From the NCBI GenBank assembly GCA_950097015.1, contig CATNEN010000038.1, positions 14,012,001 through 14,076,000 on the forward strand: DNA of 64,000 nucleotides, given 5' to 3'. The notes below the pieces were generated by a model that made no database searches, had not been told where the DNA came from, and saw only the letters and a list, made by a program, of their open reading frames with translations. Positions 14,063 to 39,200 of this stretch are shown piece by piece (the stretch's first letter is position 1; each line of letters opens with the position of its first letter). The DNA comes from Macrostomum hystrix (taxonomy: Eukaryota > Animalia > Platyhelminthes). Both the position numbers and the translations under genes were made by a program.

Positions 14063-14445
14063 AGCAGAGAGCATTAGAAGCATTCTGTTCTGAGCAATAA
14101 CAGGCGGTGCTACTGGACTGAAAATACTGGTTTCATTTCACACATGCTAGCATTTTTTCATTAGCTTGGCACATTTGTACTTTTAATTATGAAAGCCTAT
14201 TAGATTTCTTTGATTCGCTTAACAGTGTACAGTTACTTTAGGTCTAGCACCGAAAATGTACAGTTATTTTCCATGATTTGAAATACTAACAACATGATTT
14301 GATAATAAAGTTCTGTCTATAATATGTAGGCATCTACTTAATGTAAAAAATTCTTACTTTGTCATGAGCATAAAATTTTCTTAAAACACATGTTCGTCTT
14401 CTCGAACAACTTTTTTATCTCTTTGACAGCCTTACAGTTATAACT

Positions 14446-15517
14446 CTCTAACAGTTATCAACTGTCTAACAGTTACCAATTGTCTAACAGTTACCAACTG
14501 TCTAACAGTTACCAACTGTCTAACAGTTACCAACTGTCTAACAGTTACCAACTGTCTAACAGTTACCAACTGTCTAACAGTTACCAACTGTCTAACAGTT
14601 ACCAACTGTCTAACAGTTACCAACTGTCTAACAGTTACCAACTGTCTAACAGTTACCAATTGTCTAACAGTTACCAATTGTCTAACAGTTACCAACTGTC
14701 TAACAGTTACCAACTGGCTAACAGTTACCAACTGGCTAACAGTTACCAACTGTCTAACAGTTACTAATTGTCTAACAGTTACCAACTGTCTAACAGTTAC
14801 CAATTGTCTAACAGTTACCAACTGTCTAACAGTTACCAACTGTCTAACAGTTACCAACTGTCTAACAGTTACCAACTGTCTAACAGTTACCAACTGTCTA
14901 ACAGTTACCAACTGTCTAACAGTTACCAACTGTCTAACAGTTACCAACTGTCTAACAGTTACCAACTGTCTAACAGTTACCAACTGTCTAACAGTTACCA
15001 ACTGTCTAACAGTTACCAACTGTCTAACAGTTACCAATTGTCTAACAGTTACCAATTGTCTAACAGTTACCAACTGTCTAACAGTTATCAACTGTCTAAC
15101 AGTTACCAACTGTCTAACAGTTACCAATTGTCTAACAGTTACCAACTGTCTAACAGTTACCAATTGTCTAACAGTTACCAACTGTCTAACAGTTACCAAC
15201 TGTCTAATAGTTACCAATTGTCTAACAGTTATCAACTGTCTAACAGTTACCAACTGTCTAACAGTTATCAACTGTCTAACAGTTACCAACTGTCTAACAG
15301 TTACCAATTGTCTAACAGGTATCAATTGTCTAACAGTTACCAACTGTCTAACAGTTACCAACTGTCTAACAGTTACCAATTGTCTAACAGTTACCAATTG
15401 TCTAACAGTTACCAATTGTCTAACAGTTACCAACTGTCTAACAGTTACCAACTGTCTAACAGTTACCAACTGTCTAACAGTTATCAACTGTCTAACAGTT
15501 ATCAACTGTCGAACAGT
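14446..15517. repeat. 18-bp minisatellite (AACTGTCTAACAGTTACC), intergenic
   Basis: Tandem periodicity; the unit contains the inverted repeat AACTGT-CTA-ACAGTT. Confidence 0.97.
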
Positions 15518-15685
15518 GAACACAACGGCTTAAATAACAAAAGTAACTTTCAAAGGCAAACGGATGTTATTCTCTATATAACCATTGTGAAAAAACTCCT
15601 GCATTGTTTATAACTAAAACAGGAAATTTATTTTATAAAAAACTGCATATCCAAAGGACACTGCAGAATCATCAAATAAAAAGGA

Positions 15686-18042
15686 TGATGTGGAGTGTAC
15701 TTCGGAATCGAGTGGGGTTGTGAGCCAGCCAAATTTTTCCATTTTTAGCAAGTTAATAATCGCGACCCACATAGCAGCTGGCCGCAGAACACCATCATTA
15801 ATCTTAGGGCCAGACTTGGGGCGGAGGTGAATTAAGTAGCCGCCGATTCCCTTTGTCTCGGATCTGTCTAGTCCCCTGTAGGAGTGACTGATCGCGGAAA
15901 TAGCAATACTGTATGGACTAGTTTAGGTTATAATTCCCCTCCAAACCGCGATCAGATTGTCGGGATCACTCATGCGTTTAGAGTGAGCTTTAATTCTTCA
16001 TGTCCCTCTTCTTTACTGTAACCCGAGCCGAAGCTCGATTATGACCTTTCCCCCTTTAGATACATGTAACGACACTATAGGCAGGTCGGCGCCTGCGCTT
16101 CCCATATCCCGGCGGGATCACAATCATTGGCCGACTGCCGGCAGACGCTCCTAGTGGGGCATCTGGCGATTCTCGCCGCCGCTTTAGTGGGCAATTGGGG
16201 TGGCATTATGCCGACCCGATTCCTCGCTGACAGGCCGGCGAGCATGTGGGTTATTTTGATGAATGCGGGGTTGGCGGAGCTGCAGGACTATTTAAGAGAG
16301 CGCGCTGCGCTGCCCCTAGGACAACCTTTTTCTTTACCTTCCTTTTTCCTCTTTCCGGGAGCCTTTCCCGGCGACTTCCCTGCTCACCTTTTTCCCTTGT
16401 CCGGTCCCGGAACTCGGTCCGTGGACTCTCCCCCGTCTAGGCTAGCACCTAGTCCCTGAGCCTAAGGCTCCAGATCGTAGCAGCAGGCAACTACCTGCTA
16501 GTGCCCTTAAGCGCAAGCCACCTCCTTAGGTGCGCTCCAAATTGAGCCTTGAGCTCCCTGCAGTCTGGCCCCTTGCCAACTGTACTTAGCAATTCCCCAC
16601 CTTTCTCCCGTTCATTTGCATTCCCCGCGAGATCGACGGCCTGCAGCCTGTCAACCAGCGTATTCAGATAAGTAACCCGCGCAGCGGACTTTTATCGTTA
16701 TCCCTAAGGGATTTATTACCTAGCTAGTGGGCAATCGGGGCGAGGGCAGAGATTTGTTTTTAGCCTAATAAACTATTATTCATCTTAGTCGCCAATCATT
16801 TAACTATTAGGCAATTTAGTAACAATTTAAATCACTTTCTATCATGCTGTTATTTCCCCTTTATTTTCTCATTAGACAGCCCTCAATCATGAGTGGCTAA
16901 TTCACTAGGGGAATGGGCTCTGGCGAGGCCGAGCTGAAAGCTGCGGCAAGAAGGCTACTGTGAGCGCGCATGAGAGTAATATGGAGCTAGGGATTTGCGA
17001 GCTAAATGCGGGATGTAGCGTGTGCATTTCTGCCTACGAGGTGGGGGATTCCTTGGCCGGCTTTCCTCACTCTCTCGGCGGGTTCCAGTGTATGCGTCAA
17101 GTTCCTTTGCCAATTTGAATTCTCCCTCTTTTCCCCGCCTTTCGCAACCGCGGCCATGGGAGCGAGAGGCGTGATCTAATAATTTCCTGCTTGCATAATC
17201 ACTCAGCCAGTGTTCAGCTTAATCTCTCCTGCCTCTGTTCTCCTCAACTCACACAGAATCGGCTTGCTAGTTATCTAATGAGTAGGCTGCAGTCTAATGT
17301 ACGGAATGTGTCTAATGTCTCATGAGTAGGATCCTGGCTATGGATTTCTCATTCGGGTTCGGAGTACCACCTTTCTAGACCACTGTAGCGCAGTTTCAGG
17401 AATCCCCTTGTGAGGCGTGACTCGATCCATTCTGGGGTTCTCGCCCTAGTCTAAAACGGAAGTTACAGAATGCTCTATTTTTCGGCTTGTCTAAGATCTG
17501 TGTGACAAACTGGGAGCTGCGAGCTCCGGGGACCCAAGTTCCCAAATGTCTGCGGTGGCAACGTAGGCGCATTGGGTGGTGGCGCTACCTTCGATCATTA
17601 TCCGCTTTGCCGATAGCCTTTCCGCATTTCTAAGACAAGAGCCTAGGCCGAGTCGACCACTGCTACCAAAGTTAGGAGTCAGTTACGAACATGCTACTGA
17701 TGACAGTAGGCTATCTAGCCCTGTCCTATTCGCTTGCGGGTAGTCCGACATCTATTTAGACTTTTAGCCGGTTTCGAGCACTGCTTGGGGTGGGCACGGC
17801 AGTCATGCCTGTGGCCTATGGGTTGGGTGGGACTGGCCAGCCTGAGGCCAATAGGACCACTCACTTGCATCCTTTGTACCGCCTCATCTCTCCCTTCATC
17901 TCTCCCTTCATCCCTCCCTTCGTCATCCCTCTCTGCGACAACTCGCGGCAGCAGCGATCGACCTCCGACTCTATCGTCGTTTCCCACACTCCTATCTTTC
18001 ATGAGGGCGGTCATCGGCTAGCAAAAGACCCGCACTATTTCA
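15686..18042 (+). repeat. 5' LTR (2357 bp)
   Basis: Begins TGATGTGGAG, ends CACTATTTCA; TATA-like TATTTAA at 16289-16295 and AATAAA at 16767-16772. Confidence 0.97.
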
Positions 18043-18043
18043 A

Positions 18044-18062
18044 TGGTGGCAGCGGTGGGATT
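18044..18062 (+). promoter_or_regulatory. Primer-binding site complementary to the tRNA-Leu 3' end
   Basis: TGGTGGCAGCGGTGGGATT lies 1 nt after the LTR; it is the reverse complement of ...AATCCCACCGCTGCCA-CCA, the 3' end of animal tRNA-Leu(AAG/TAG) as I recall it. Confidence 0.9.
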
Positions 18063-19364
18063 TAGAAAGGGCGCGAAACGAACCTGAATTTTTCAATTGT
18101 TAGTTTAGCGCCGCAGATTTCTGTGGTAGTTAGCCGTAAGGGCTTCTTCTAGATTTCATCTTCCGTACGCCTAAATCTTATCTCTAGAGACTGGACTTCA
18201 GTTCGAGTAACTGTCAATTAATTTTCTTTGAACAGTTTCAATTTGATTCGGACTTTAATGTAAGGATTTTGTTAGGATTTCCAAAATTTCTGATTAGTGA
18301 CTTTCTACTAAGAGTAGGCTGTGTGAGCGGACTTCATGCTAGAGTGTCTTCGGGTTATGTGGCTGCTGCAGGAGTCAGGGACTGTCTGTGGGGTTTCCCG
18401 CGTGACTGTTCTGGGAGGGGCCAATCTTAACGAAGGACCGGGCCATGCCGGTCAGGCCTCCTAACCGAGCGAAGTGAGCCCCCGGCAATGCAGCCGGGAA
18501 CCGATGACTCGCTGAGCACCGGGGGTTGGTTCTCTTGGGCAGCTTGTAGGCCTGCTTACGTGTACCTGATTCTGAAAGTGTCACATAGCTTTGATCAAGT
18601 CTGACTTTGGTGGGGAACAGTTAGGGAGGTGGGACCTTCTGGGAGGTCTAGCGACCCCCGTGCCCGCCTCTCGAAGCTGCCTACTTTAAGTATGGGCTAG
18701 AATTCGGTCGGCGCGTCTTTCTAAGAAACTCTCTGAGGGATGGTCTAAACGGCGAAACCGGGCTCTAAGCCACGGACCCCTAACCGAGCGAGGTCTCAGA
18801 TGTATAATTCCTGGGATCCCCAGCCTCGTAATCGCGGAGGCGAAGCCCCCGGCCATCCCCACCGGGAAGGGCCCTCTGAGCGAATCGGGGATTAGCCTTC
18901 TTTGAATGACTTTTTGAGTCGCGTACTTTCCAAGGTAGGGAGATAGGCTGCTGCAGGCGCAAGCTTGCAGTAGTACTGGCCCCGCCGTACCTATAGTGTA
19001 ACAGTCTGCTATAGGGTTGCTGAATGAGTGCTAAGTTAAAACCTGGACTTCTATGTCCCAAACTTAAGTGCGCGCAAGCAGTTGTCGGTAGCCAAGGCTG
19101 GAAGCAAAGCTAGCCAGGGCCCTGGGCCCTTTTTCTCTCTCATTGATCTTTGATCTCATTTTTGTTGTAGGATTGTTTGCTAGGAATAAGGAATTTGCTC
19201 GCCATTAATTAGGGCTGGATTTGACAACTCAGGCCATTCTCTTTCCCTCTCGCACGACCCCCGGTCGTGATCTGTGTTCCCCTTTTTCTCCTTCCCCATT
19301 GTTGCATTAGCGACAAACACCCCTTTTTAATTCGCAAAACCCTCATTTTCTCTTTTGGTCGAAA

Positions 19365-22300
19365 ATGTCCGACCAGGAGGATGAGGTCGTCGAGGCAATC
19401 GGCGCCCCCCGTCCAATCAAAAATCGGGCTGTCTCCGCAGAGAGATGCCAGGAGAGGCGCCCCCTTCCTGCAACTGCAGCCTCGGGTACCTCTAGAACGG
19501 ATCCGTGGAAGGTCCATCGGCACCTTCTTGAGATGCTGCAATCAATTAAGTCCGATTTGCAATCGCTTAACGGCCCAGTGCACTCCCCGGTGTCGTGGCA
19601 CTCGGCTGCCACCCAGACGGAAGGTGAGCGTCCACAGGTTGTCAGGCCGGCGTACGGTTTCCGAATCCCGGTGGAGCCATTCGACCAAGGTCGCTCCGAC
19701 ATTGCCTCCTGGATGCTTCGGCTGGAGGCAAAATTCCAATTTGAGGAGGTCGCCGATGATAAGGCCAAGAACGTGACCTGTTACAGCCTGCTGCCGGAGG
19801 AGATGCAGCTAGAGTGTCTCCTGACGGTTGATTTTGATGGCCCCTTTGAGCACTTCCGAGCCAAAGTGTTAGACGGCTGCCTGGATTCCAGGTTGCCGTT
19901 AACTAAGAAGCGCACGGTCGAGCGCCTGCAGCCACGTTCAGGGGAGGCTCCTGAGGTGTTCTTAGTGCGGCTGAGGAAGCTCGTGGAGTGGGCTTATGCC
20001 GAATACCCAGAGGACTGGCGACAGAACGAGCTCAAACGGCTCTATCTGCAGAACGGCCACTTCGGCTACAACTTTGCCTTCGAGGCATTCCAGGCGAAGG
20101 ACTGGACCCCGGAAGGCACGGTGTTTGAGCAGCGGAGGTCCGAGGAGGCTGACCGCGTCGCGCACGAAATCGAAAGCGAGCGACTAAGTTCAGCCTCTGA
20201 GGATGCTTCGGTGTATCAGAGCTGTGCGTCCCCGGTGAGCAGCCCTCCTCGAGCCGCGGTCAGGGCGGTAGAGGCAGCTGACGAAGCTGGCCCCGCAGAA
20301 CTCAGAAATGGAGTGGAGAAGGTGGGAGTCGGCTCCCAACTAACGGCTGAGCAGGAAAGGCAGCTGGGAGACTTGTTGCGGGCCAACGCCGACTTGTTCG
20401 CCGACCAGGAGGAGGACCTGACGGTCACGAGCGTGGTCCAGCATGAGGTCACGCTGACTGACCCCCGGCCCGTGAAGTCGGCGCCGCGGAGGATTCCCCA
20501 GGCCTACCTCGAGGAGGTGCAGCAGATGGCAAGGGAGTGGTTGGAGACCGGGAAGGTCAGCCGCTCGACCAGCTCTTACTGCTCGCCGCTGGTGCTGGTC
20601 AAGAAGAAGGACGGCTCTCTACGGGTCTGCATCGACTATAGGGAGCTCAACGAGCGGAGTGTGTCAGAGGTCACGCCGCTGCCACGCATCGACGAACTGT
20701 TGGCATCGTTGCATGGGTCCTCTTACTTCACCACCCTGGACCTCCGCAGCGGGTACCACCAAGTGCCCATGCACGAAACTTGCAAATCATACACCGCATT
20801 CGCCGTCCCGGGAGTCGGGTTACTGCAGTGGAATGTGATGCCATTCGGGCTGAAGGGTGCACCAAGCACATTCTCCCGCTTGATGAACCTGGTGCTGGCA
20901 GGCGTGCCACAGCATGAGGCCATGGCGTACATCGACGACGTCATCGTGCACTCTGCTACCTTCGAGGAACACCTAGTCCGGCTCCAGAAGACATTCGATC
21001 GTCTTCGGGCGGCTAATTTGAAGATGAAGCCATCAAAGTGCTTCCTCGCGCAGCCCGAGATCTCTTTCCTCGGACATACGGTGTCGGGAACAGGCATCGC
21101 GACTGACCCTCATAAAACATGTGCGTTGACCACGTGGCCACGGCCGCGTACAGCCACTGACGTCCGCTCATTCTTAGGCGCGGTGGGCTACTACCGTGAT
21201 TTCGTGCCCGAGTACAGCCGCCTCTCGGCACCTCTTTGTGAACTCACCAAAAAGGGCCTCGTGGATATAGAACCCCTCTGGGACGACCGGCACGAGGCCG
21301 CGTTCGAGGAGCTGAAGGCGCGGATGGTCGAGGCGCCAGTGCTGGCCCACCCGAGTTTCGAAAAGGGCGCAGGGCGTTTCATCCTCGACTGTGACGCCAG
21401 TCTGGAGTCCTTGGGGGCGGTGTTGAGTCAAGAACAGCCGGACGGGACGGAGAGGGTCTTGGCCTATGGCAGTAAGGCCTTATCCGCATCTCAGCGGAAC
21501 TACTGCGTCACTAAGTTAGAAATGCTGAGCCTCGTGTACTTCACTAGGAAGTACAGGTACTACCTACTGGGCCGCCGGTTCTTGGTCCGAACCGACCACA
21601 GTTCCCTCCAGTGGCTGCGGAGCTTTAAGGAGCCAACTGGCATGTATGCTCGGTGGGTGCAGCACCTGTCGCTATACGACTTCGACCTGGAGTATAGGAA
21701 GGGCAGCCTCCATACCAACGCCGACGCATTGAGTCGCCGGCCTAGACAGAGACACGGAGATTGCCCCGTCTGTCGGCCGTTGGAGCCCGGCAGCGAGGAA
21801 GAAAGTGAGGACGAAGGGATGGTGGTAAACGCCGTCGCGGCAGTCATGGAGCCGCCGCTGCAGCCCGAGGAGCTGCTGGCCCAGCAGGTCGCCGACCCGG
21901 TGATCCATTGGATACTGCAAGCGAAGGTCAACGGTCTGGCCGCCCCAGTTCCGGCCGCGGTCCCGGAGTTGACCGCCAAGCAGAAGGTTGCGTTGAAGAA
22001 GGTGGTGCCCTACTGGGACCTCTTGAGAGTGGAGGAGCAGCTGCTCAAAATTCAGGTGCACGCTCCCCCCCGGCCGCCGCTGTGGGTGCTCCCAGCAAGC
22101 CTCGATGAACAGGCTTTCCACTCGTGTCATAACGGGACCTTGGCCGGGCATTTCGGGCGTCAAAAGACCCTGGGGCGTGTCGGCCAGCGGTTTTGGCGAC
22201 CAGGACTCCGCGCTTCGATGCAGAAGCTGTGTGCGCAGTGCCACGTCTGCCTGTGCAGCAAGAAGGGTCGCAGAGCCCAGGCTCCGCCGCAGCCATGGGA

Positions 22301-23504
22301 GAAGAGCCCGAAGTTCTCACGGATTCACCTGGACTTTGTCGGCCCACTCGGCCGCGGCGGTCAGAGCATCCTCACGATCGTGGATAGCTATTCCGGCTGG
22401 GTCGAGGCGTTCCCTGTGGCCAACCAAACTGCTAAGGCAGTCACGAGGATCCTGTCCACAGAGTTCATCCCACGGTTCGGGGTGCCCGATTGGATCCATA
22501 GTGACCAGGGCGCCCAATTCGAGTCGAGCCATTTCCGCGACTTTTGTCGGCAGCTGGGCATACGGAAGACCAGGACCACGCCCTACCACCCACAAGGCAA
22601 CGGCATGGCGGAGTCCCAGCACCGCACACTGAAGACGCTGTTGACAACAGCCGTGGGTCGCCACCAAGAGAAGTGGAAGTCACACCTGGGCACTTGCCTT
22701 GCCGCCATGAGGTCCGCCGAACACACTTTGACCGGATTCTCACCATTCTTCTTGGTGTATGGGCAAGAAGCCAGGCTGCCCGTAGACGTGGCACTGGCCG
22801 CGCCGGCCGAAGCACCTGCGCCCCATCATTACGCGGAGCAGCTCTTGCAGAACCTGGAAGAGGCACAAGTGCAGCTGCAGGAGCAATTTAGTCAGAAGCT
22901 CCAGGCGCAGGCCCGAATGGGGGACAGGCAACGGAAAACGGAGCTCGAGGTAGGGGCCGTAGTGTACCTGGCCCGCCATCAGATCGAAGGCTGGGAGATC
23001 CCCAAATTTCACCAGGCCTACTCAGGACCGTGGAAGGTGGTCGCGAAGCCGGGCGTGTCGGTTTACGACATCGCGCCGGTGACCCCGCAGCCCGGCCGAC
23101 AACAGACGTACCGGGTACACCGCGACAACTTGCGAGCCGTTCCCAAGGAGGCCGGGGAAGCCCGACCAACCCAGGAGGCGGGCGAGAGACGACCAAGGCA
23201 GGTGCAGCGTGGGCCCGGCCGGCCACCCGTGCGGCCCAGGCCAGCCTCACCCCCGCCGAGGATGTTAAGGGCGGAAAGCGAGCCCGACGACCAGTGGAGC
23301 GACGGCTCCTCTGATTCCGGGGAGTACTGGATTGACCTCGAGGAGCCGCCGCCGCAAAGGATGGACGAAGGCCCGCGAGTGTTGAGGCCCCGGGAAGGCA
23401 TCCGACCCCCCGAGCGCTGGGGCTATGCCCGGAGGATTCTCCTCGGCGAGCCCGAATCTGACCCGGAATCCTGGGCGAGGACCAACGGCCACGACCCAGG
23501 CTAG
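19365..23504 (+). CDS. gag-pol: Gag(capsid)-RT-RNase H-integrase polyprotein, 1379 aa, no recognisable protease
   Basis: Capsid MHR-like QPRSGEAPEVFLVRLRKL; RT SPLVLVKKKDGSLRVCIDYRELN, LDLRSGYHQ, MPFGL, YIDD; RNase H DAS, KLEML, TDH, NADALSR; IN H..H..CxxC, HLDF, HSDQG, NGMAE (DDE) and a GPW module. Confidence 0.97.
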   Translation: MSDQEDEVVEAIGAPRPIKNRAVSAERCQERRPLPATAASGTSRTDPWKVHRHLLEMLQSIKSDLQSLNGPVHSPVSWHSAATQTEGERPQVVRPAYGFRIPVEPFDQGRSDIASWMLRLEAKFQFEEVADDKAKNVTCYSLLPEEMQLECLLTVDFDGPFEHFRAKVLDGCLDSRLPLTKKRTVERLQPRSGEAPEVFLVRLRKLVEWAYAEYPEDWRQNELKRLYLQNGHFGYNFAFEAFQAKDWTPEGTVFEQRRSEEADRVAHEIESERLSSASEDASVYQSCASPVSSPPRAAVRAVEAADEAGPAELRNGVEKVGVGSQLTAEQERQLGDLLRANADLFADQEEDLTVTSVVQHEVTLTDPRPVKSAPRRIPQAYLEEVQQMAREWLETGKVSRSTSSYCSPLVLVKKKDGSLRVCIDYRELNERSVSEVTPLPRIDELLASLHGSSYFTTLDLRSGYHQVPMHETCKSYTAFAVPGVGLLQWNVMPFGLKGAPSTFSRLMNLVLAGVPQHEAMAYIDDVIVHSATFEEHLVRLQKTFDRLRAANLKMKPSKCFLAQPEISFLGHTVSGTGIATDPHKTCALTTWPRPRTATDVRSFLGAVGYYRDFVPEYSRLSAPLCELTKKGLVDIEPLWDDRHEAAFEELKARMVEAPVLAHPSFEKGAGRFILDCDASLESLGAVLSQEQPDGTERVLAYGSKALSASQRNYCVTKLEMLSLVYFTRKYRYYLLGRRFLVRTDHSSLQWLRSFKEPTGMYARWVQHLSLYDFDLEYRKGSLHTNADALSRRPRQRHGDCPVCRPLEPGSEEESEDEGMVVNAVAAVMEPPLQPEELLAQQVADPVIHWILQAKVNGLAAPVPAAVPELTAKQKVALKKVVPYWDLLRVEEQLLKIQVHAPPRPPLWVLPASLDEQAFHSCHNGTLAGHFGRQKTLGRVGQRFWRPGLRASMQKLCAQCHVCLCSKKGRRAQAPPQPWEKSPKFSRIHLDFVGPLGRGGQSILTIVDSYSGWVEAFPVANQTAKAVTRILSTEFIPRFGVPDWIHSDQGAQFESSHFRDFCRQLGIRKTRTTPYHPQGNGMAESQHRTLKTLLTTAVGRHQEKWKSHLGTCLAAMRSAEHTLTGFSPFFLVYGQEARLPVDVALAAPAEAPAPHHYAEQLLQNLEEAQVQLQEQFSQKLQAQARMGDRQRKTELEVGAVVYLARHQIEGWEIPKFHQAYSGPWKVVAKPGVSVYDIAPVTPQPGRQQTYRVHRDNLRAVPKEAGEARPTQEAGERRPRQVQRGPGRPPVRPRPASPPPRMLRAESEPDDQWSDGSSDSGEYWIDLEEPPPQRMDEGPRVLRPREGIRPPERWGYARRILLGEPESDPESWARTNGHDPG

Positions 23505-23710
23505 GGAAAGGTAGCTCCCGCTGCGGGTGCCCCGAAGCACTCACTCGGCCGTGCTAGGCGACCGAGCCCCACTGGAGACCTCGTTGGGGAAGCGATCCCC
23601 CATTCTGTTACCCTTTTTGCTCCTTTCTCCTATTGTGCACGCCTTCCTTTTTCATCAAAGCCGCCTTGGCACAAAAATCTCATAAAAATTCTTATAATTT
23701 AGCCAGAAAC

Positions 23711-24267
23711 CCAAAAACATACCTAGTGGGGTGAAATTCCCCTAGTACTTTTTCGCATGAGATGCCTATCTAATTGTAGCAACCTAGGGCATGCACCTTC
23801 TTTTCTTAAAGAGCATTTTACTTTAATCGCACCACATCATGCATGGCACCTCTGCCTTATCTTGTTCATATTGGTGGGTCTGTGGGAGTTCAATTTAGGA
23901 CAACTTCTAAATTAGGAGGGACACCAACCCGCTAAAGTGAGCGGGGTGGTATGCCATGGGAAATTCTATGTTTCTTTAAGGGTGGGAAGGCGGTTTCAAA
24001 TCAAAAAGGCCATCTCGGCGCCAAATCCTCTTAAAAACTCATATAAACTAGTCAAAATCCAAAAACATATTTAGTGGGGTGAAATTCCCCTTCGTAAGAA
24101 TTTTCGCATGAAACATTTTCGTAATAACTGCCGCAAACTAGGGTTCGCACCTACTTTTCGCAAAACTTGCTTATCTTACATGTTCTCCATGCTTGGTTTC
24201 GGGAATTTAGCTATGCCGGCTCTATTTAGGGGGTATACCAACCCGCTAAAGTGAGCGGGGTGGTATG
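23711..24267 (+). repeat. Diverged tandem duplication (period ~315-350 bp) in the retroelement 3' region, with conserved hairpins
   Basis: CCAAAAACATA..TAGTGGGGTGAAATTCCCCT at 23711 and 24059; identical 31-mer at 23923-23953 and 24237-24267. Confidence 0.85.
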
Positions 24268-24769
24268 TTTCGGGAGTTTTTCTTAATGTTTGTTTAAAGA
24301 GTGGGCGGTTGTAAATCAAGAGGCCGGTAGGGCCGGGTATTCAAATTCTAGGGGAGACAATCTGGCTGTTTCAATGAGCGACAGATTTCAAAATGATAAT
24401 TTTTCTTTTGTTAGGGCTAGAAAAGGCAAAAAGAAACATTATTTGGGGAGCCAGAAGTTAGCGGCTGGGCATTCAAATCTAGGTACCTGGAGGGGTAGAA
24501 TAGTAATAAATCGTACGAATTAAGGTTCCAGACGTTTCGAAAACTCATTAACAGTCTATTAGTTTTTTTCGGTTACTAGGCAATCGTAAAATTTGAGCAG
24601 TAATGTTTCATCTAGGAAGGAAGTCGGACACAGATAGCGGATTCTCTTTTACATTTCAAATAGTGGCGGTTTATTTGCATGATAATGTGGCACAGTTTGG
24701 CGAAGATGCCTACAGTCAAGTGATGATAGTGGTAGCAGATAGCAGTTCAGAGGGTGGTAGTGGTCGCCG

Positions 24770-25406
24770 TTACATCAGTAAAATCAGTACGAAAAGCACG
24801 ATGGCTGCGATCGCCACTCCGGCAGCCAGGGCCATGCCCAGCGGGCCCCGAATAAAACTCGAAACGATGGCCGCCAGGTCGGCCTCGCGGCCTTCGGGCA
24901 CGTTAATGTCTGCAAGAGCAAGGTGGATGAGTAGTTTAGTAAGGCGCAGTGGCGTTCTGCGGGCGGAAGTTTCAAATGGTGACACCCAGGGTGGGGGGGG
25001 AAGTGTAGGTTTATCAATGCCAACTTACTCATCACAAACGACACCGATATGGGGCCACCCGACGCGGTCCGGCGTCGAGGCTCCGGTTCGAAGGCACCGA
25101 GCGGGTAGCTGCTGAAAGCGAAGAGTGGTGTAGTCCGATTAGGAATGGAAGAATAGAGGTGGCAATCGCAGACTAAGTAACTTTCAATTTAATCAATCAT
25201 TAACTCAGGAAGGGTTCCTTTTTCGCAGTTTTGGGGTCGGGGTCAATTTCAGATTCTCGGGATAAATGGCGTGCCGTGGGTAGGGGGAACTCTAGTTATC
25301 CTAATTATTATGACATAACCCTCGCAATTATCCTTAATAACCGGCCTTGGGGGGCCGAGTAGAAGCAAATAACTCACCTTTCGTCTTCAGGTTGCTGCTG
25401 GGCCAT
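24770..25406 (-). CDS. Predicted 3-exon antisense gene inside the retrotransposon, 83-aa protein with C-terminal transmembrane helix
   Basis: Exons 25406-25378, 25111-25029, 24909-24770. Donors AG|GTGAGT and A|GTAAGT; acceptors CTCTTCGCTTTCAG| and TTGCTCTTGCAG|; phases 2 and 1 join in frame. First ATG after the TATA, in ATAATGG context. AATAAA at 24675-24670. Confidence 0.75.
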
Positions 25407-25587
25407 TATGTAGTCAAGACGTACGCGATAGTTGGTATCGATGCTGGTCACAGTGTAGACTTAGATGGCAAATGTGTAGTTTTTCCTTCTTGCCGTTAAT
25501 CACAAGGATGTTAGGTTCAGTATGGCGGAATTAGCAGTTGTTTAGGAGATAAAGAGGCTTTGGGTTAATGGGGCGTCAAGTGTTTGC

Positions 25588-25636
25588 TTTTATAGGGCTA
25601 ATTTAGGGAGACGTGGCGGTCTAACCGCCAGCCAAT
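25588..25636 (-). promoter_or_regulatory. Putative Pol II core promoter of the antisense gene (TATAAAA 25594-25588; CCAAT 25632-25636)
   Basis: Consensus TATA on the minus strand ~180 nt upstream of the ATG, no intervening ATG, CCAAT box ~40 nt further upstream. Confidence 0.65.
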
Positions 25637-26367
25637 GGGAGCAAAGTGGGAATTCCGGGCAGAACCAGTTTAGGGGGCTCATGGTAACAGTTTAGTTGTT
25701 GGGGCCCTGACCTTTTCGGTGAGGAGACACCTCGGCCGGCAACAGCATCACAAGCGGCCTGAGCAGCGGTTTCCCCAGCTGCGACCAGCTGCAGCGCCGA
25801 TTGGGCCGCGCGCAACGGCTAGGCAACCGGCCCGACGAGAATTTTCGGGCCCGGCCAGCTGAAAACACCTGGGCGCGCGGCGAATCAGAGGCTACCACGG
25901 CCCGGCAACGGAATCGGGAAGGCGCGAACGGACCAACCAACCCGGAGCCACCTGGGGAAGAGCACGGCCGGACCCTCGGACTTAAGGAGAAAACGGCCGG
26001 AGCCTCCCGGGATTGCGCAACCGAGACCAAGCCGGGCAGGGAAAGACGGGGACAGCTGCAGCCACCTGGAGGAGAAGGCGAATCGGGACACGGCACCCCG
26101 GGACAGCGAGAACAACTCTAACTCAGCCGGAATGCGCACCCACCTCCCCTCAGGACTCTATCCCTTAGTTGCTAGGGGCGCCGACCTTTACACTCTCGCA
26201 CACAATCTATTTATAGCAGTATTGTTACGTACGATGACCTAGGATTTCTTCTCTAGCGGATTTCTTCTTAAGGTTCTTTACGGTATACAGTAGGGTAATG
26301 TAAGTTTTTGCCCCCTCGATTCGCGGCACACCCCACTACTGACAGTAAGCACGTAAGTGCCTTACGT

Positions 26368-26387
26368 GAAAGTGAGCAAGGGCGGTG
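26368..26387 (+). promoter_or_regulatory. Imperfect polypurine tract
   Basis: GAAAGTGAGCAAGGGCGGTG immediately before the 3' LTR. Confidence 0.55.
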
Positions 26388-28744
26388 TGATGTGGAGTGT
26401 ACTTCGGAATCGAGTGGGGTTGTGAGCCAGCCAAATTTTTCCATTTTTAGCAAGTTAATAATCGCGACCCACATAGCAGCTGGCCGCAGAACACCATCAT
26501 TAATCTTAGGGCCAGACTTGGGGCGGAGGTGAATTAAGTAGCCGCCGATTCCCTTTGTCTCGGATCTGTCTAGTCCCCTGTAGGAGTGACTGATCGCGGA
26601 AATAGCAATACTGTATGGACTAGTTTAGGTTATAATTCCCCTCCAAACCGCGATCAGATTGTCGGGATCACTCATGCGTTTAGAGTGAGCTTTAATTCTT
26701 CATGTCCCTCTTCTTTACTGTAACCCGAGCCGAAGCTCGATTATGACCTTTCCCCCTTTAGATACATGTAACGACACTATAGGCAGGTCGGCGCCTGCGC
26801 TTCCCATATCCCGGCGGGATCACAATCATTGGCCGACTGCCGGCAGACGCTCCTAGTGGGGCATCTGGCGATTCTCGCCGCCGCTTTAGTGGGCAATTGG
26901 GGTGGCATTATGCCGACCCGATTCCTCGCTGACAGGCCGGCGAGCATGTGGGTTATTTTGATGAATGCGGGGTTGGCGGAGCTGCAGGACTATTTAAGAG
27001 AGCGCGCTGCGCTGCCCCTAGGACAACCTTTTTCTTTACCTTCCTTTTTCCTCTTTCCGGGAGCCTTTCCCGGCGACTTCCCTGCTCACCTTTTTCCCTT
27101 GTCCGGTCCCGGAACTCGGTCCGTGGACTCTCCCCCGTCTAGGCTAGCACCTAGTCCCTGAGCCTAAGGCTCCAGATCGTAGCAGCAGGCAACTACCTGC
27201 TAGTGCCCTTAAGCGCAAGCCACCTCCTTAGGTGCGCTCCAAATTGAGCCTTGAGCTCCCTGCAGTCTGGCCCCTTGCCAACTGTACTTAGCAATTCCCC
27301 ACCTTTCTCCCGTTCATTTGCATTCCCCGCGAGATCGACGGCCTGCAGCCTGTCAACCAGCGTATTCAGATAAGTAACCCGCGCAGCGGACTTTTATCGT
27401 TATCCCTAAGGGATTTATTACCTAGCTAGTGGGCAATCGGGGCGAGGGCAGAGATTTGTTTTTAGCCTAATAAACTATTATTCATCTTAGTCGCCAATCA
27501 TTTAACTATTAGGCAATTTAGTAACAATTTAAATCACTTTCTATCATGCTGTTATTTCCCCTTTATTTTCTCATTAGACAGCCCTCAATCATGAGTGGCT
27601 AATTCACTAGGGGAATGGGCTCTGGCGAGGCCGAGCTGAAAGCTGCGGCAAGAAGGCTACTGTGAGCGCGCATGAGAGTAATATGGAGCTAGGGATTTGC
27701 GAGCTAAATGCGGGATGTAGCGTGTGCATTTCTGCCTACGAGGTGGGGGATTCCTTGGCCGGCTTTCCTCACTCTCTCGGCGGGTTCCAGTGTATGCGTC
27801 AAGTTCCTTTGCCAATTTGAATTCTCCCTCTTTTCCCCGCCTTTCGCAACCGCGGCCATGGGAGCGAGAGGCGTGATCTAATAATTTCCTGCTTGCATAA
27901 TCACTCAGCCAGTGTTCAGCTTAATCTCTCCTGCCTCTGTTCTCCTCAACTCACACAGAATCGGCTTGCTAGTTATCTAATGAGTAGGCTGCAGTCTAAT
28001 GTACGGAATGTGTCTAATGTCTCATGAGTAGGATCCTGGCTATGGATTTCTCATTCGGGTTCGGAGTACCACCTTTCTAGACCACTGTAGCGCAGTTTCA
28101 GGAATCCCCTTGTGAGGCGTGACTCGATCCATTCTGGGGTTCTCGCCCTAGTCTAAAACGGAAGTTACAGAATGCTCTATTTTTCGGCTTGTCTAAGATC
28201 TGTGTGACAAACTGGGAGCTGCGAGCTCCGGGGACCCAAGTTCCCAAATGTCTGCGGTGGCAACGTAGGCGCATTGGGTGGTGGCGCTACCTTCGATCAT
28301 TATCCGCTTTGCCGATAGCCTTTCCGCATTTCTAAGACAAGAGCCTAGGCCGAGTCGACCACTGCTACCAAAGTTAGGAGTCAGTTACGAACATGCTACT
28401 GATGACAGTAGGCTATCTAGCCCTGTCCTATTCGCTTGCGGGTAGTCCGACATCTATTTAGACTTTTAGCCGGTTTCGAGCACTGCTTGGGGTGGGCACG
28501 GCAGTCATGCCTGTGGCCTATGGGTTGGGTGGGACTGGCCAGCCTGAGGCCAATAGGACCACTCACTTGCATCCTTTGTACCGCCTCATCTCTCCCTTCA
28601 TCTCTCCCTTCATCCCTCCCTTCGTCATCCCTCTCTGCGACAACTCGCGGCAGCAGCGATCGACCTCCGACTCTATCGTCGTTTCCCACACTCCTATCTT
28701 TCATGAGGGCGGTCATCGGCTAGCAAAAGACCCGCACTATTTCA
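26388..28744 (+). repeat. 3' LTR (2357 bp)
   Basis: Same length as the 5' LTR; the translated LTR ORFs match within the LTR and spot checks showed no mismatch. Confidence 0.97.
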
Positions 28745-29290
28745 AGGATTATTAACATGGGTTAATCAACCAGAGACCTTATTAGGTATGAATTATTATA
28801 GTCTGTGTATTAATATATGTTATTAAAATGTGTTAATATATTAACAAAATAGAGTTAGCTAGCCAAAAAAATCTGGCCTACGGGTTACTTGTCAGGTTTG
28901 TACAATAAAAACACCATACATTTTACTTTTATCGGAAAGTACAAGAAAGTGCATCGATGGCTTGCAAAATTAATCAGTGCAGCATTTTAACCATGGATTT
29001 GTGCATGACGGACCTAGACCAGAAAGCATCTATAGATAAAAACTGGTGTTTAGATTCCTACCCGGTGTTGTTAGGAACTTGTAGATTACAAAATGGAATG
29101 TCTGCTTGAGATTATGAATTCATCCTCTTAGTTAATCAAGCAAAACGATCACTTTATAAAACTGCTTCGAAAATTTACAAGTTATTGAAAATAATTAATC
29201 AAGCAGATGAAACCAATGAGAGTTCATGATACACTACTATAAGTAGAGATCTTCATTCAAAATAGTCAAGACAAGCACACAGCGGCAGAC

Positions 29291-31892
29291 TTAGACTCTG
29301 GTTGTGGAACTGTTGCTTTTCGAGCTTCGGCTTCCGCCACCGCTGCCGCCTCCAGCTCTTCGGCACAGCACTTGCCCGATGGCTGAGAAACAGGCGCCCA
29401 GCGTCCACTGACCGGGCTTGCCAGATGGCGGGGCTGTCGCGGCCGGGCGAGCCAGAATCAGCGGCTCCTCTTGGGCCGACGCTGGCACAGGTGCACGTAG
29501 CACACGCAGTCGGTCGAACACCTCTTCGAAGGCTTCGTCGACTCCTTCGCCGGTGCGAGCGGAGGCCTCCACGCAAGCGTGCAGTCCGTGCCGAGCGGCG
29601 AACGCGGCGGCCTCCTCTGGCGAGACCTGCGGTCGCGAGGAGCTAGCAGGTAACTCATACGGACATCAAGATCCCATTCTGACATCAAGATCCCATTCTG
29701 ACATCAAGATCCCATTCTGACATCAAGATCCCATTCTGACATCAAGATCCCATTCTGACATCAAGATCCCATTCTGACATCAAGATCCCATTCTGACATC
29801 AAGATCCCATTCTGACATCAAGATCCCATTCTGACATCAAGATCCCATTCTGACATCAAGATCCCATTCTGACATCAAGATCCCATTCTGACATCAAGAT
29901 CCCATTCTGACATCAAGATCCCATTCTGACATCAAGATCCCAGTCTGACATCAAGATCCCATTCTAACATCAAGATCCCATTCTGACATCAGGATCCCAT
30001 TCTAACATAAAGATCCCATTCTGACATAAAGATCCCATTCTGACATGAAGATCCCATTCTAACATCAGGGTCCCATTCTGACATCAAGATCCCATTCTAA
30101 CATCAAGATCCCATTCTAACATCAGGATCCCATTCTGACATCAAGATCCCATTGTGTCATACACTCTCACCTGTCTCTCATTGGCGGCACAGTCAGCCTT
30201 GGCACCGACCAGCACAATGATGATGTCAGCAGGCGCATCCTCCCTTAAAGCTGGCAACCAATCAGAACCTGCCGCGGTCAACGAATCCTTATTGGCTACG
30301 TCGTAGATCAATAGGGCGGCTCGGGCGCCGGACAAATAGCCCCGGACAATGTGCCGGAAGCGCTGATGACCGCTCGCGTCCCAGATTGAAGGCTTAAAAT
30401 TGATAGATTTGTTGTTATAGATTTAGTTTGGCAAATTAAACAGTCTGGAATTTCAGCCTTTCTACTTGTCTCACATCTGGCACACCCACCTTTGGCAAGC
30501 GAAAGCTTTTTAAATTAGGTCAATTTAGCCAAATAAGCCGGTGTTGCAGGCACACGCACGATTATAAACCACTGACTAAAAAAACGCAGGCCCAAAAAAC
30601 CAGATTGTACCAGTTAATCATGCAAGGTTAATCAAGCATTCTTTAATCTACAAGTCATTATATGTAGCTAGAGTTGAACACTGACTCAAAGACCTAAGGA
30701 GCCAATTAGGTGTTTTAAATCACTTTCGCTCTGTCGTTTGCTTCGTCTAGCTAAGAAAATTGTTGACGCAATTGTTTCCTATAATAGATTAGGCATCTGA
30801 ATTGGCTATAGGTAGCAGTAGCAGATTTTATAAATTAGCACGATGGCCTGCAGTACATAATAGCCTATATATTAGCCATGGAGCTAGATGATAATAGCCT
30901 GAGGTTAGAATAAATGCGATAACAGTGACTCAAGACTCAAGGGTGCAGGATTATGAGATTGGTGCAATTAGCTAGGTCACCAAAGATATTATCACAGCTA
31001 TAGAACTCAAAGTTCTGTGTGTTTAGGAAATCTAGAAAATTGGAATGAGAGTAAATAAAAGGGGGAGAATAGATGAGAGGGAGAGTAGACGAGAGGGGTA
31101 GATGAGAGCGGAGTGGATAGGTGAGAGGGGGAGAGTAGATAAGAGGGGAGAGTAGATGAGAGGGGAGTATAGACAAGACGGGAGAGTAGATGAGAGGGGA
31201 GAGTAGATGAGAGGGGAGAGTAGATGAGAGGGGAGAGTGATAGGGGAGATTAGTTGAGAGGGGAGTAGATGAGAGGGGAGTAGATGAGAGGGGAGTAGAT
31301 GAGACGGGAGAGTAGATGAGAGGGGAGAGTAGATGAGAGGGGAGAGTAGATGAGAGGGGAGAGTGATAGGGGAGAGTAGTTGAGAGGGGAGTAGATGAGA
31401 GGGGAGTAGATGAGACGGGAGAGTAGATGAGAGGGGAGAGTAGATGAGAGGGGAGAGTAGATGAGAGGGGAGAGTGATAGGGGAGAGTAGTTGAGAGGGG
31501 AGTAGATGAGAGGGGAGTAGATGAGACGGGAGAGTAGATGAGAGGGGAGAGTAGATAAAAGGGGAGAGTAGATGAGAGGGGAGAGTGATAGGGGAGAGTA
31601 GATGAGAGGAGACAGCAGAAGTGTTGGATAATGACTGGTGCATCTTAAATGATGGATATTGCAGGATAATAAAAGGAGCTAGCTGCATTGGCTGGCTGAC
31701 GAATTAGCATGGATCTGTCACCTTCAAGCCGTCCGGCTGCTCAGCTAGGAAAATGACATCGATGCCAACTGTGGCCAGACAGTTGGGCTCAAACACGTGA
31801 TCCACGTAGCGGCTAATTAAGCTAGACTTGCCGCAGCCCTGGGCGCCGGCAACAATCACCGCCGGTCCGCGTTGGTGCGCGTTTAGTGCCAT
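29291..31892 (-). CDS. Atypical Rab-like small GTPase, 3 exons (31892-31722, 30392-30171, 29626-29291), 242 aa
   Basis: G1 GAQGCGKS, G2 ATVGID, G3 WDASGHQRF, YLSGARAALLIYDV, G4 VLVGAKAD, G5 EASARTGEGVDEAF; both introns are phase-0 GT-AG. Confidence 0.88.
29662..30153. repeat. 19-bp minisatellite (GACATCAAGATCCCATTCT), Rab intron 2
   Basis: Tandem periodicity. Confidence 0.97.
31060..31610. repeat. Purine-rich 15-18-bp minisatellite (GAGTAGATGAGAGGGGA), Rab intron 1
   Basis: Tandem periodicity. Confidence 0.93.
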
Positions 31893-36245: not shown

Positions 36246-39200
36246 ATGTCTTCTACTCATCGTCATAGATCTGCTAGGTCTAGTCACAGAGATAGGCACA
36301 GTCGCAGCTGCAGCCATAGTCCAAGGCGTCATCATCATTCTAAAGACTCAAGGGAGAATCGCCGACAGCATTCATCTGGCAAAGCGTCACATAGCAACCG
36401 GCACAGCGGCAGGCATTCGCGAAATAATAGCAATAAGTTATCCAGTCAGGACAAGAGAAAAACAGAAACTGATGGTAAAGATTCTAACACAATTTCTGGT
36501 ATAGATTGCGGAGAAGAAATTCGACGAGTTCTTCTGGTGCAGAAGCAGAAGCAGCCATCAGATGCAACTGACAATGAAGCAAGGCAGCAGCAGCAGCCGC
36601 AGCCTGCTGATCAGCCACCTTCTCAAGAACAAGAAGAGGTTAGTCTGCAAGATCCTGTCATGTAGCGTTTGCGGGGTATTTCAAATACCCACTGCCTATT
36701 TCACAATAGCTCCCAAACCGAATGACCGAATTTCGTGAAAGTCCACCATCTGAATCAAAATTTTCCACCCTATACGATGAACTAACTTTCAAAGCGTCTG
36801 AGCAAGCATCCTCGAGATGTTCAGCGATTCTTATCGAAGACCCTGGTGACAACGACAAATTACATTGCTCTGTATAATATCGATACTATATAGACAACAA
36901 AGATCTCGCATCTCGACGATGCCGATGTTTTATGATTCTGGAAGTTATTATGGATTATGGGTATTTGAAAGATGTGGGTATTTTAAAAACCCACGTGGTC
37001 GTTCTACTATTAAAGCTTCGGAATTATGACCTAGAGGTTCGGAGTTCGAATCTTAGCCTAAGAGAATCGATTTAGGTCTCAGCACAAAATAATCAATTCC
37101 CTTGTGCTTCAGCCTACCCAGCTGTAAAATAAGCAATATCATTAAAATTTAGCAGCAGCAGCAGCGGGTCCAACAAATTACCATGACAACTGCAGCATCG
37201 ACAGCGGCTGTCGAGAGCTGCGGAAAAGTTTCCTTCGCCAGCCAAATTCGAGTCTCCGAAGCAACTAGGCGACTGATTACGGATGGCATGACTCAATGTG
37301 AACCATCTGCTACTATCCAGCAGGGCACTGTACCTACCAATGGTCTGCCATCCTCAACGTCCTCATTTGGTACATTTGGTAGGCCGAAAGCGCATTCGAG
37401 AAAGGTACCCGAAGATTGTTCCAGCGAGAGCCGAAAGTTGCCGTCTTCTGAGATAAGAAAAACTTCACCGCCTGGGAGGTCTGGAAGTAGGAAGCGAAGC
37501 CGCAGTAGGTCTCGGTGAGAATGCTCGAGTGTCTTAGAAACTTTCTCCTGAAACTTGATTTTAAAAGAGTCAGTGGCAAAACATGAGTTTCTTGAAATAA
37601 TATATATGTATATATTTTTAGGAACAGTGTTATTGGTTTTCAACTTCTATTTCAAACTAAGTAACTTCAATTTCGCCCGGCGGCTCTCCGGCTGGCGTTA
37701 GTAACTTATTCGTCCGCGGGGAGGGGGGTGCTCGTGTGTACCCGATTAGTAACTTCAATTTCGTCCGCGAGACCGGCCTGCCCAAGTTAGGGTAAATCAA
37801 TTTCACAAAAAGTAACATCTATTTCGTCTCTTCAGCACAGCGATTTGTGTTTGCATCCGCTCTGTGAAATGCCTTTGATCTTCGCCGACGCCGCCACCGA
37901 CTCCGCCACAGTAAAATTACAATACATTTCTTTCGAGTGTCGAGCCATTTGTGGCCCTGTGAATTTATAACCCTATAGCACAGAACCCTATACAATAAAT
38001 TCAGCTAATTGGATAGCGCCGACACTTTCACATCCAGCCGCTCTTGAAGCTCCAATCTTATTATAATATATTTAATAATATTAATATATATATTGGGAAC
38101 GAGATCTCTCCATCATGTCACACAACTTTGTTTAAGTCACAGAAATGCCTCGCGGAAATTACGGAAAGGTGTCTCAAACAGACCGCCAGCGACTGATCTC
38201 TGCATTTTAAAGAAAATGCTGACTGGCTGCAGCTTGCTGTCCAGTTGGGGTTCAACAAGCAAACGGCTTGATCCATCATTACGCGTTCTGACTTTCTTCT
38301 GACAATGGAGTCCTCCATTGTCTTGCCTGACACGTCAAAAATAGATATTAATATTGAAAGTCTGTTTGAAGCCGGATGAAAAAAATGCAAGACGAAATAG
38401 AAGTTACTTTTTGTGAAATTGATGTATACCCTAACTTTGGCAGGCCGGTCTCGCGGACGAAATTGAAGTTACTAATCGGGTACACACGAGCACCCCCTCC
38501 CCGCGGACGAAATTGAAGTTACTAATCGGGTACACACGAGCACCCCCTCCCCGCGGACGAAATTGAAGTTACTAATCGGGTACACACGAGCACCCCCTCC
38601 CCGCGGACGAAATTGAAGTTACTAATCGGGTACACACGAGCACCCCCTCCCCGCGGGCGAAATTGAAGTTACTAATCGGGTACACACGAGCACCCCCTCC
38701 CCGCGGGCGAAATTGAAGTTACTAATCGGGTACACACGAGCACCCCCTCCCCGCGGACGAAATTGAAGTTACTAATCGGGTACACACGAGCACCCCCTCC
38801 CCGCGGACGAAATTGAAGTTACTAATCGGGTACACACGAGCACCCCCTCCCCGCGGACGAAATTGAAGTTACTAATCGGGTACACACGAGCACCCCCTCC
38901 CCGCGGACGAAATTGAAGTTACTAATCGGGTACACACGAGCACCCCCTCCCCGCGGACGAAATTGAAGTTACCAATCGGGTACACACGAGCACCCCCTCC
39001 CCGCGGACGAAATTGAAGTTACTAATCGGGTACACACGAGCACCCCCTCCCCGCGGACGAAATTGAAGTTACTAATCGGTTACACACGAGCACCCCCTCC
39101 CCGCGGGCGAAATTGAAGTTACTAATCGGGTACACACGAGCACCCCCTCCCCGGGGACGAAATTGAAGTTACTAATCGGGTACACACGAGCACCCCCTCC

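Follow-up and report, generated by a model that had tools for sequence, protein, structure and literature searches.

A predicted spliced antisense gene for a tail-anchored protein in a Gypsy retrotransposon of the flatworm Macrostomum hystrix

A Ty3/Gypsy LTR retrotransposon occupies positions 15686-28744 (13.06 kb) of the window, the whole 64,000-nucleotide stretch of Macrostomum hystrix DNA analysed here. In the interval between pol and the 3' LTR it carries a three-exon gene on the strand antisense to gag-pol, which is the placement that defines aORF-3R genes. The pattern of substitution among diverged copies indicates that this gene is very probably real and protein-coding, with its spliced frame under purifying selection. 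Antisense extra ORFs are a known class; judged by its sequence features, the new aspect here would be the intron-bearing variant with a predicted tail-anchored product. Transposon annotation seeks long ORFs, and a gene in antisense pieces of 29, 83 and 140 nt is therefore overlooked. The selection data of this case support the view that a complete spliced gene can lie concealed in the long “non-coding” interval that separates pol from the 3' LTR.

The host element and the anatomy of the antisense gene

The element has LTRs of the form TG...CA, a target-site duplication, a primer binding site, a purine tract and the domain order gag-RT-RNase H-integrase expected of Gypsy retrotransposons (Table 1). 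Pfam places RT, RNase H and integrase of the single long ORF in Gypsy order, and the N-terminal part of this ORF has an Atlas score of 0.95 to Retrotrans_gag clusters. The LTR pair is 100% identical over 2358 nt, which together with the 4-nt duplication implies a very recent insertion. The primer binding site presumably pairs with tRNA-Leu. It has no match in the primer binding site tables of the PMC13524379 supplements, and Rfam gave no matches within the element at E values up to 1. Downstream of pol, each of the two ~350-nt units contains a hairpin, one around 23915-23960 (−20.3 kcal/mol) and the other around 24230-24275 (−22.3 kcal/mol), both folded without a shuffle control.

An aspartic protease between Gag and RT, which a fully autonomous Gypsy member requires, is missing: no motif was found in any frame of the element, and the protease profile found in 100 of 120 Pol homologues had zero matches in its six frames at E values up to 10. 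Gag is fused straight to RT, with neither a protease nor a CCHC knuckle, despite the intact ORF and the identical LTRs. Either a protease is supplied in trans or this lineage dispenses with cleavage. The Gag lacks a Gly at position 2, and the element has no env. The literature covered, which left subscription papers and Repbase outside its scope, did not report a protease-less layout like this one. The closest Pol proteins are ~50% identical over RT-RNase H (RT-RH), and most of the top-scoring relatives with a name come from arachnids, a bivalve, a tunicate, a sea cucumber and fish. In a Pol tree of 120 rows (one of 120 homologues fell below the length cut and was left out), the element falls within a group of six (support 0.96) that includes a sea-cucumber “Gag3-Pol3”, which is too distant to lend a clade name.

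Table 1. Features of the element and of its predicted antisense gene (positions in the window)
Feature	Position	Strand	Remarks
5' LTR	15686..18042	+	2357 nt, TG...CA; 4-nt target-site duplication 15682-15685 directly upstream
Primer binding site	18044..18061	+	TGG start, just past 5' LTR
Gag-Pol ORF	19365..23504	+	single, intact, 1379 aa; Gag capsid-like region, RT, RNase H, integrase
Two diverged copies of a ~350-nt unit	23657..24319		downstream of pol; 74-77% identity over aligned parts
AATAAA, predicted poly(A) signal	24675-24670	-	within 24651-24771, a stretch absent from a diverged copy
Exon 3	24909-24770	-	codons 38-83 and TAA (24772-24770); predicted amphipathic helix, then C-terminal membrane helix
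Intron 2	25028-24910	-	119 nt, GTAAGT...TACTAAAC...TTGCAG; branch-like site TACTAAAC at 24941-24934
Exon 2	25111-25029	-	83 nt, codons 10-38; acidic stretch, basic RRxT site, alternating hydrophobic strand
Intron 1	25377-25112	-	266 nt, GTGAGT...TTTCAG; tandem acceptor
Exon 1, coding part	25406-25378	-	29 nt, start ATG; four joints of diverged contigs start at 25402-25407
TATA box (TATAAAA), predicted internal antisense promoter	25594-25588	-	from sequence; diverged contigs rejoin at 25538-25627
CCAAT	25632..25636	+	inverted relative to the gene; ATTGG on minus strand
Purine-rich tract	26368..26387	+	adjoins 3' LTR on its upstream side; read from sequence
3' LTR	26388..28744	+	2357 nt; followed by target-site duplication 28745-28748

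A first, sequence-only reading had proposed a three-exon antisense gene at the env position of a Gypsy element. Its location between pol and the 3' LTR is confirmed, and the TATA box, ATG-free leader, Kozak ATG, GT-AG introns, stop and AATAAA are all present where that reading had placed them. Two details need amending. The TATAAAA does read on the minus strand; the CCAAT, which had been assigned to the same strand, reads on the plus strand and appears as ATTGG on the minus. CCAAT boxes work in both orientations. The TTTCAG acceptor of intron 1 likewise stands, as the first half of a tandem CAG/CAG whose second AG (25109), 3 nt further and in frame, allows an 82-aa form. The spliced frame comprises 252 nt (29 + 83 + 140 nt of coding sequence) with a single stop and encodes 83 aa. 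Its start codon (25406) is flanked by A at −3 and G at +4; the leader up to the TATA box is free of ATG, and the next ATG upstream is at 25682. Coding GC3 is 0.71, against 0.74 in pol. Since the genomic RNA is the opposite strand, the antisense introns are kept and an intron-bearing gene survives reverse transcription.

The likelihood of such a model arising by chance was assessed in 1,500 block-wise dinucleotide shuffles of the interval between pol and the 3' LTR, on both strands and with thresholds picked when the model was already known. A three-exon ORF of at least 50 aa with comparable splice signals occurred in nine of the 1,500 shuffles; a membrane-strength stretch was also present in one, and TATA plus AATAAA in none. 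The branch-like 8-mer by itself is within chance (one match in the window, 1.48 expected).

The first 45 nt of intron 1 can form a hairpin (−15.0 kcal/mol, without a shuffle control; no Rfam match), and the 5' end of this intron (25332-25382) is common to diverged copies from both studies described below. This region may be a splicing or packaging signal. A stretch just downstream of the gene (24486-24640) is also shared with diverged copies, and has a plus-strand AATAAA at 24505 and a later T-run.

Substitutions among diverged copies

Copies of the gene were taken from contigs of six public runs belonging to two studies; the kind of library is not known, and contig depth in these tables does not represent copy number. 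Substitutions were compared over 24735-25140 in four runs of one study, which contain a handful of haplotypes, using copies at least 80% alike. This region holds 43 differences in all, 40 of which are listed (27 in exons 2 and 3, 13 in intron 2), and the substitution counts that follow refer to these 40. In the spliced antisense frame, 18 of the 27 listed exon substitutions are synonymous, compared with a mean of 7.9 expected when the same types of change were placed at random, ignoring CpG context, and none of 20,000 such simulations reached 18. When four changes from one low-depth contig are set aside, 16 of the 23 listed substitutions are synonymous. Third positions account for 17 of the 27 listed changes (p = 0.0015), and pN/pS for the listed differences is about 0.19. 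The expectation of the sequence-only reading, that diverged copies would keep the splice sites and the frame with dN/dS below 1, is therefore borne out, and the sequence is conserved as coding sequence across family copies, as in other aORFs.

The signal follows the proposed splicing. Among the listed substitutions, 12 of 17 in exon 2 are synonymous, all 12 at third positions, and six of 10 in exon 3, where third positions (5/10, p = 0.21) are not significant alone. In each of these exons, the predicted frame has the most synonymous listed changes of the six plain frames, and the phase of the best frame switches between them exactly as the 119-nt intron demands. The plus-strand frame that has third positions in common with it in exon 2 makes nine of the 17 listed changes synonymous, yet contains a stop. 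Within codons 27-33, every change listed at depth above 5 is synonymous. Four different insertions of 1-2 nt occur at 24992-24993 in intron 2 among the contigs, and the only indels in exons 2 and 3 are one compensating −1/+1 pair in a single contig of depth 3.8. No listed change touches the donor 2 hexamer, the branch core or the acceptor YAGs, and the four listed changes between the branch site and acceptor 2 all retain or gain a pyrimidine.

The limits of similarity also coincide with parts of the model. Alignments of diverged contigs break off at 24772, where the stop codon begins, and at 24942, 1 nt outside the branch-like site. Of the joints in diverged contigs, four start at the ATG and rejoin the element around the TATA box (Table 1), with further rejoining below 24650. 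In the second study, one contig spans donor 1 and agrees with the window at every letter of 25332-25382 apart from a single gap. The AATAAA falls in 24651-24771, which is not shared by one diverged copy. Long contigs are identical to the window over the flank 25579-26040, and other contigs agree with it around parts of the gene but not inside them (joints 24607-25285, 24650-24772 and 25366-25555). These patterns hint at subfamilies that share flanks and would carry differing alleles of the antisense gene. Among the contigs examined, none joins the diverged gene to pol or an LTR. None of nine joints from contigs of four runs, with introns 1 and 2 in range, equals an intron, and for intron 2 alone no joint is listed in these runs; such contigs lose rare forms and the library type is unknown, which leaves these results silent on splicing. 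The leader (25438-25505) is without contig cover in three of the four runs, and gaps of this kind carry no weight.

The predicted protein, its relatives and known systems

The product had been read as a tail-anchored microprotein, and hydropathy and a helix model of the exon-3 peptide agree with this prediction: a single hydrophobic helix lies at the C-terminus, and there is no N-terminal signal sequence. Residues 1-21 include five acidic and no basic residues, and are followed by an RRxT site at 22-25. In one diverged contig, T25A and A26S together shift the site, by eye, to an RRxS one residue further on. An alternating hydrophobic strand (~31-41, strand moment up to 0.72) and an amphipathic helix (~48-59, helical moment 0.59 at 48-58) precede the predicted membrane helix (~60-83), which is uncharged. 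The last charged residue is 58, leaving the last 25 residues uncharged, and the final 19 have a mean Kyte-Doolittle value of 3.07. The tail contains four small-xxx-small pairs. The 46-aa exon-3 peptide is modelled as one long helix from its residue 8 to 45 (pLDDT 88, a weak prediction from a single sequence). A scan of the 83 aa found no Gly2, Cys, NxS/T, late-domain motif or tyrosine sorting motif. Prediction of a complex between the Gag capsid region and the exon-3 peptide, without alignments, scored 0.00 and makes no call either way.

Searches for relatives used single-exon peptides (exon 3, 46 aa; exon 2, 27 aa), which may miss relatives of the strand that spans the junction. The exon-3 peptide had no homologue among proteins of 25-81 aa or 82-2000 aa, and no match at E up to 0.001 among 1.84 billion representatives. 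Its best Atlas score (0.82) is under the useful level, with a recognition of 1760 that is lower than for known families, and its best PDB match (E 0.36) is unrelated; the exon-2 peptide had no match in the PDB. Neither peptide gave anything above the cut-offs of Pfam and NCBIfam. A BRCA2 BRC repeat was rejected as an identity (11.9 bits against a cut-off of 20.3, E 0.16), as the key Phe of FxxA is absent and residues 25-26 vary in other copies. At the DNA level, motif scans for relatives detected none in metagenome and viral contigs. Scans with RT-RH likewise found none in viral contigs, and recovered two distant loci of 36-39% identity. In one of these, a distant Gypsy relative (locus L002, 5361-7097, plus strand; 36% in RT-RH), a 578-aa sense ORF with a hydrophobic end follows pol and is probably env-like.

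The closest known counterparts by position are the aORF-3R genes, antisense between pol and the 3' LTR, of maize Grande (gene23), rice RIRE2, Retand, bean PvRetro13 and fungal Boty (PMC7264820, PMC11963269); Grande gene23 has its own upstream promoter (PMC7264820). The antisense gene shares their place, orientation and conservation among copies. As described in the available parts of these reports, however, the plant and fungal genes are mostly >600 bp and encode nuclear products or TRP28/SMC domains, in contrast to 83 aa, two introns and a predicted membrane anchor here. Neither introns nor a tail anchor are mentioned there (the word “intron” is absent from the text seen of PMC11963269). A Retand-type aORF was rejected, as the exon-2 and exon-3 peptides have no TRP28/SMC match in Pfam and the protein has a predicted membrane tail in place of a nuclear character. 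A 2020 review, in the portion consulted, calls for a search for antisense and spliced transcripts (PMC7264820). The present case would add an animal element to the plant and fungal ones known to bear antisense accessory genes, and a product predicted to be membrane-anchored to the nuclear ones.

HTLV-1 HBZ is a spliced antisense gene with a nuclear role. Its promoter lies within the 3' LTR (PMC7264820, in the part available). The likeness is that of an antisense gene in a retroelement; here the predicted promoter is internal and the product is predicted to be non-nuclear. Among animal elements, Oikopleura Tor3b/4b also have a downstream membrane-protein gene with a non-LTR promoter, but in the sections available this env follows pol, is unspliced in those groups and encodes a furin-cleaved glycoprotein with conserved cysteines (PMC4402516). 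Bdelloid rotifer ORF3s are likewise varied, family-specific extra genes at the env position of Gypsy-type elements; those with membrane products have 210-230 aa with cysteines, however, and the text available does not describe an antisense intron-bearing gene (PMC5408684). In Cer1, a spliced mRNA serves for an accessory protein (PMC10309623, in part). An Env glycoprotein was rejected as an identity, the protein having a polar N-terminus without signal peptide, 0 Cys, 0 NxS/T, 83 aa and an antisense gene. The parts seen of PMC8220671 and PMC13524379 contain nothing specific to this gene. Across the literature covered, with subscription papers and Repbase outside its scope, we found no report of an animal LTR retrotransposon with an antisense, intron-bearing gene for a membrane protein.

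Possible roles of the product and the neighbourhood of the gene

Purifying selection among the copies implies a product from which the spread of the element benefits. We tentatively favour a role as a tail-anchored membrane adaptor for the particles of the element, a reading chosen because the element lacks Env, a myristoylated Gag and a protease. The antisense gene would be transcribed from its own internal TATA promoter and spliced to give an 83-residue tail-anchored protein. Its C-terminal helix would insert post-translationally into a membrane of the secretory pathway, with the N-terminal 59 residues facing the cytosol. Long and very hydrophobic tails that are not followed by a basic residue direct proteins to the ER, Golgi or plasma membrane and not to mitochondria, so these destinations are favoured here. 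The conserved strand and the amphipathic helix may bind the Gag-Pol particle or a host trafficking factor, and the adaptor would set where particles assemble or travel, replacing the membrane targeting that is missing from an unmyristoylated, Env-less element. The working analogy is alphaherpesvirus Us9, which is tail-anchored, of about the same size, has an acidic cytosolic arm and routes particles; general searches found no sequence link between the two. Against the adaptor, no homologue, family or late-domain motif names a partner, and the role is read entirely from anatomy and analogy.

A lesser possibility, to which the selection data lend themselves equally, is that the product alters the working of a host membrane protein (pump, channel or stress/death regulator) or makes a small pore, to the benefit of element-bearing cells. 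Phospholamban-type regulators have a phosphorylatable cytosolic arm, an amphipathic helix and a C-terminal helix, a layout that the 83-aa protein recalls. The RRxT site, with the RRxS that one diverged contig retains, would fit such an arm, and the small-xxx-small pairs of the tail suit helix packing. Host-like, apoptosis-related domains are also carried by planarian Burro elements (PMC6431247, in the part available). Yet a single haplotype supplies the phospho-site hint, the tail lacks the polar residues that would line a pore, and the exon-3 peptide matched no solved regulator. Under self-limitation, which we think distinctly unlikely, the protein or the antisense transcript would curb the replication of the element itself or exclude related elements: antisense transcription can pair with genomic RNA as double-stranded RNA, regulatory roles have been proposed for plant antisense ORFs (PMC7264820), and allelic variety among copies would suit self-recognition. 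The plant products described in the available text are nuclear or predicted to bind DNA, however, not membrane-anchored, and a role of the RNA only leaves the synonymous bias unexplained.

The selection could instead have acted outside the element, if the gene were a captured host gene carried as a passenger and its diverged copies were host paralogues or independent captures. With its full set of promoter, introns and poly(A) signal the gene does resemble a cellular one, copies differ more in the gene region than in the flanks, where long contigs match exactly, and no contig bridges the diverged gene to pol. Nevertheless, capture appears unlikely, as diverged contigs rejoin element-internal sequence on either side at the joints given above, GC3 is close to that of pol, and exon 3 has no cellular homologue among the representatives searched. 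The sequence-only reading had suggested an env substitute or FAST-like fusogen, comparable to reovirus FAST or to sORF2 of the Drosophila MDG1 group. Both are small single-pass membrane proteins, sORF2 occurs in Env-less LTR retrotransposons, and the 83 aa and one hydrophobic segment fall within the single-helix class of 60-210 aa and within the 63-107 aa of sORF2-like proteins; the env position and an amphipathic helix N-terminal to the membrane helix are further likenesses (bioRxiv 10.1101/2025.03.14.642691, in the part available). The suggestion did not hold up, and we regard it as very unlikely. There is no MGxxxS/T (residue 2 is not Gly) for myristoylation, no Cys for palmitoylation and no N-glycosylation site, and the N-terminal part has 59 aa against about 30 (10-50 allowed). 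Whereas sORF2, as described there, has a central membrane helix, N-out topology, usual myristoylation, a polybasic patch and a cytoplasmic tail, the antisense protein is predicted to show none of these, its helix ending at the C-terminus with no room for a tail amphipathic helix. Finally, exon 3 without homologues and its low Atlas recognition would be compatible with chance signals or a non-coding feature from which no protein is made. This is highly improbable given the absence of the full model from all 1,500 shuffles, the frame-specific synonymous excess and the confinement of frame-breaking indels to the intron.

If the adaptor is extended to the whole lineage, a wider and more doubtful picture would be that of protease-less, Env-less animal Gypsy elements with a self-contained antisense intron-bearing gene that is swapped or diversifies fast between subfamilies, its tail-anchored product giving uncleaved Gag-Pol particles a membrane route for assembly or cell-to-cell passage. 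If true, this would be a third solution beside Env and FAST-like sORF2, invisible to ORF-based transposon annotation. The question raised is how a protease-less, Env-less element inserted so recently, and whether the antisense protein contributes. Other elements could be screened for a shift of codon phase across antisense introns among copies.

Upstream of the antisense gene, 25690-26215 contains a second minus-strand TATA (26215) and GC-rich, ATG-less open frames on both strands (25723-26121, plus; 25692-26117, minus) with no Pfam match, and is a possible further hidden coding exon. By eye, five of the eight differences listed for 26082-26170 share the third-position phase of these frames. 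Outside the element, pieces of an intron-split Ras-family GTPase gene (Pfam Ras) lie on the minus strand at 29294-30422, ~550 nt from the 3' LTR. Long tandem arrays of 18-nt, 50-nt and 21-nt units occupy 14427-15530, 38427-39400 and the sequence from 47487, respectively, and the 18-nt array stops ~150 nt before the element.
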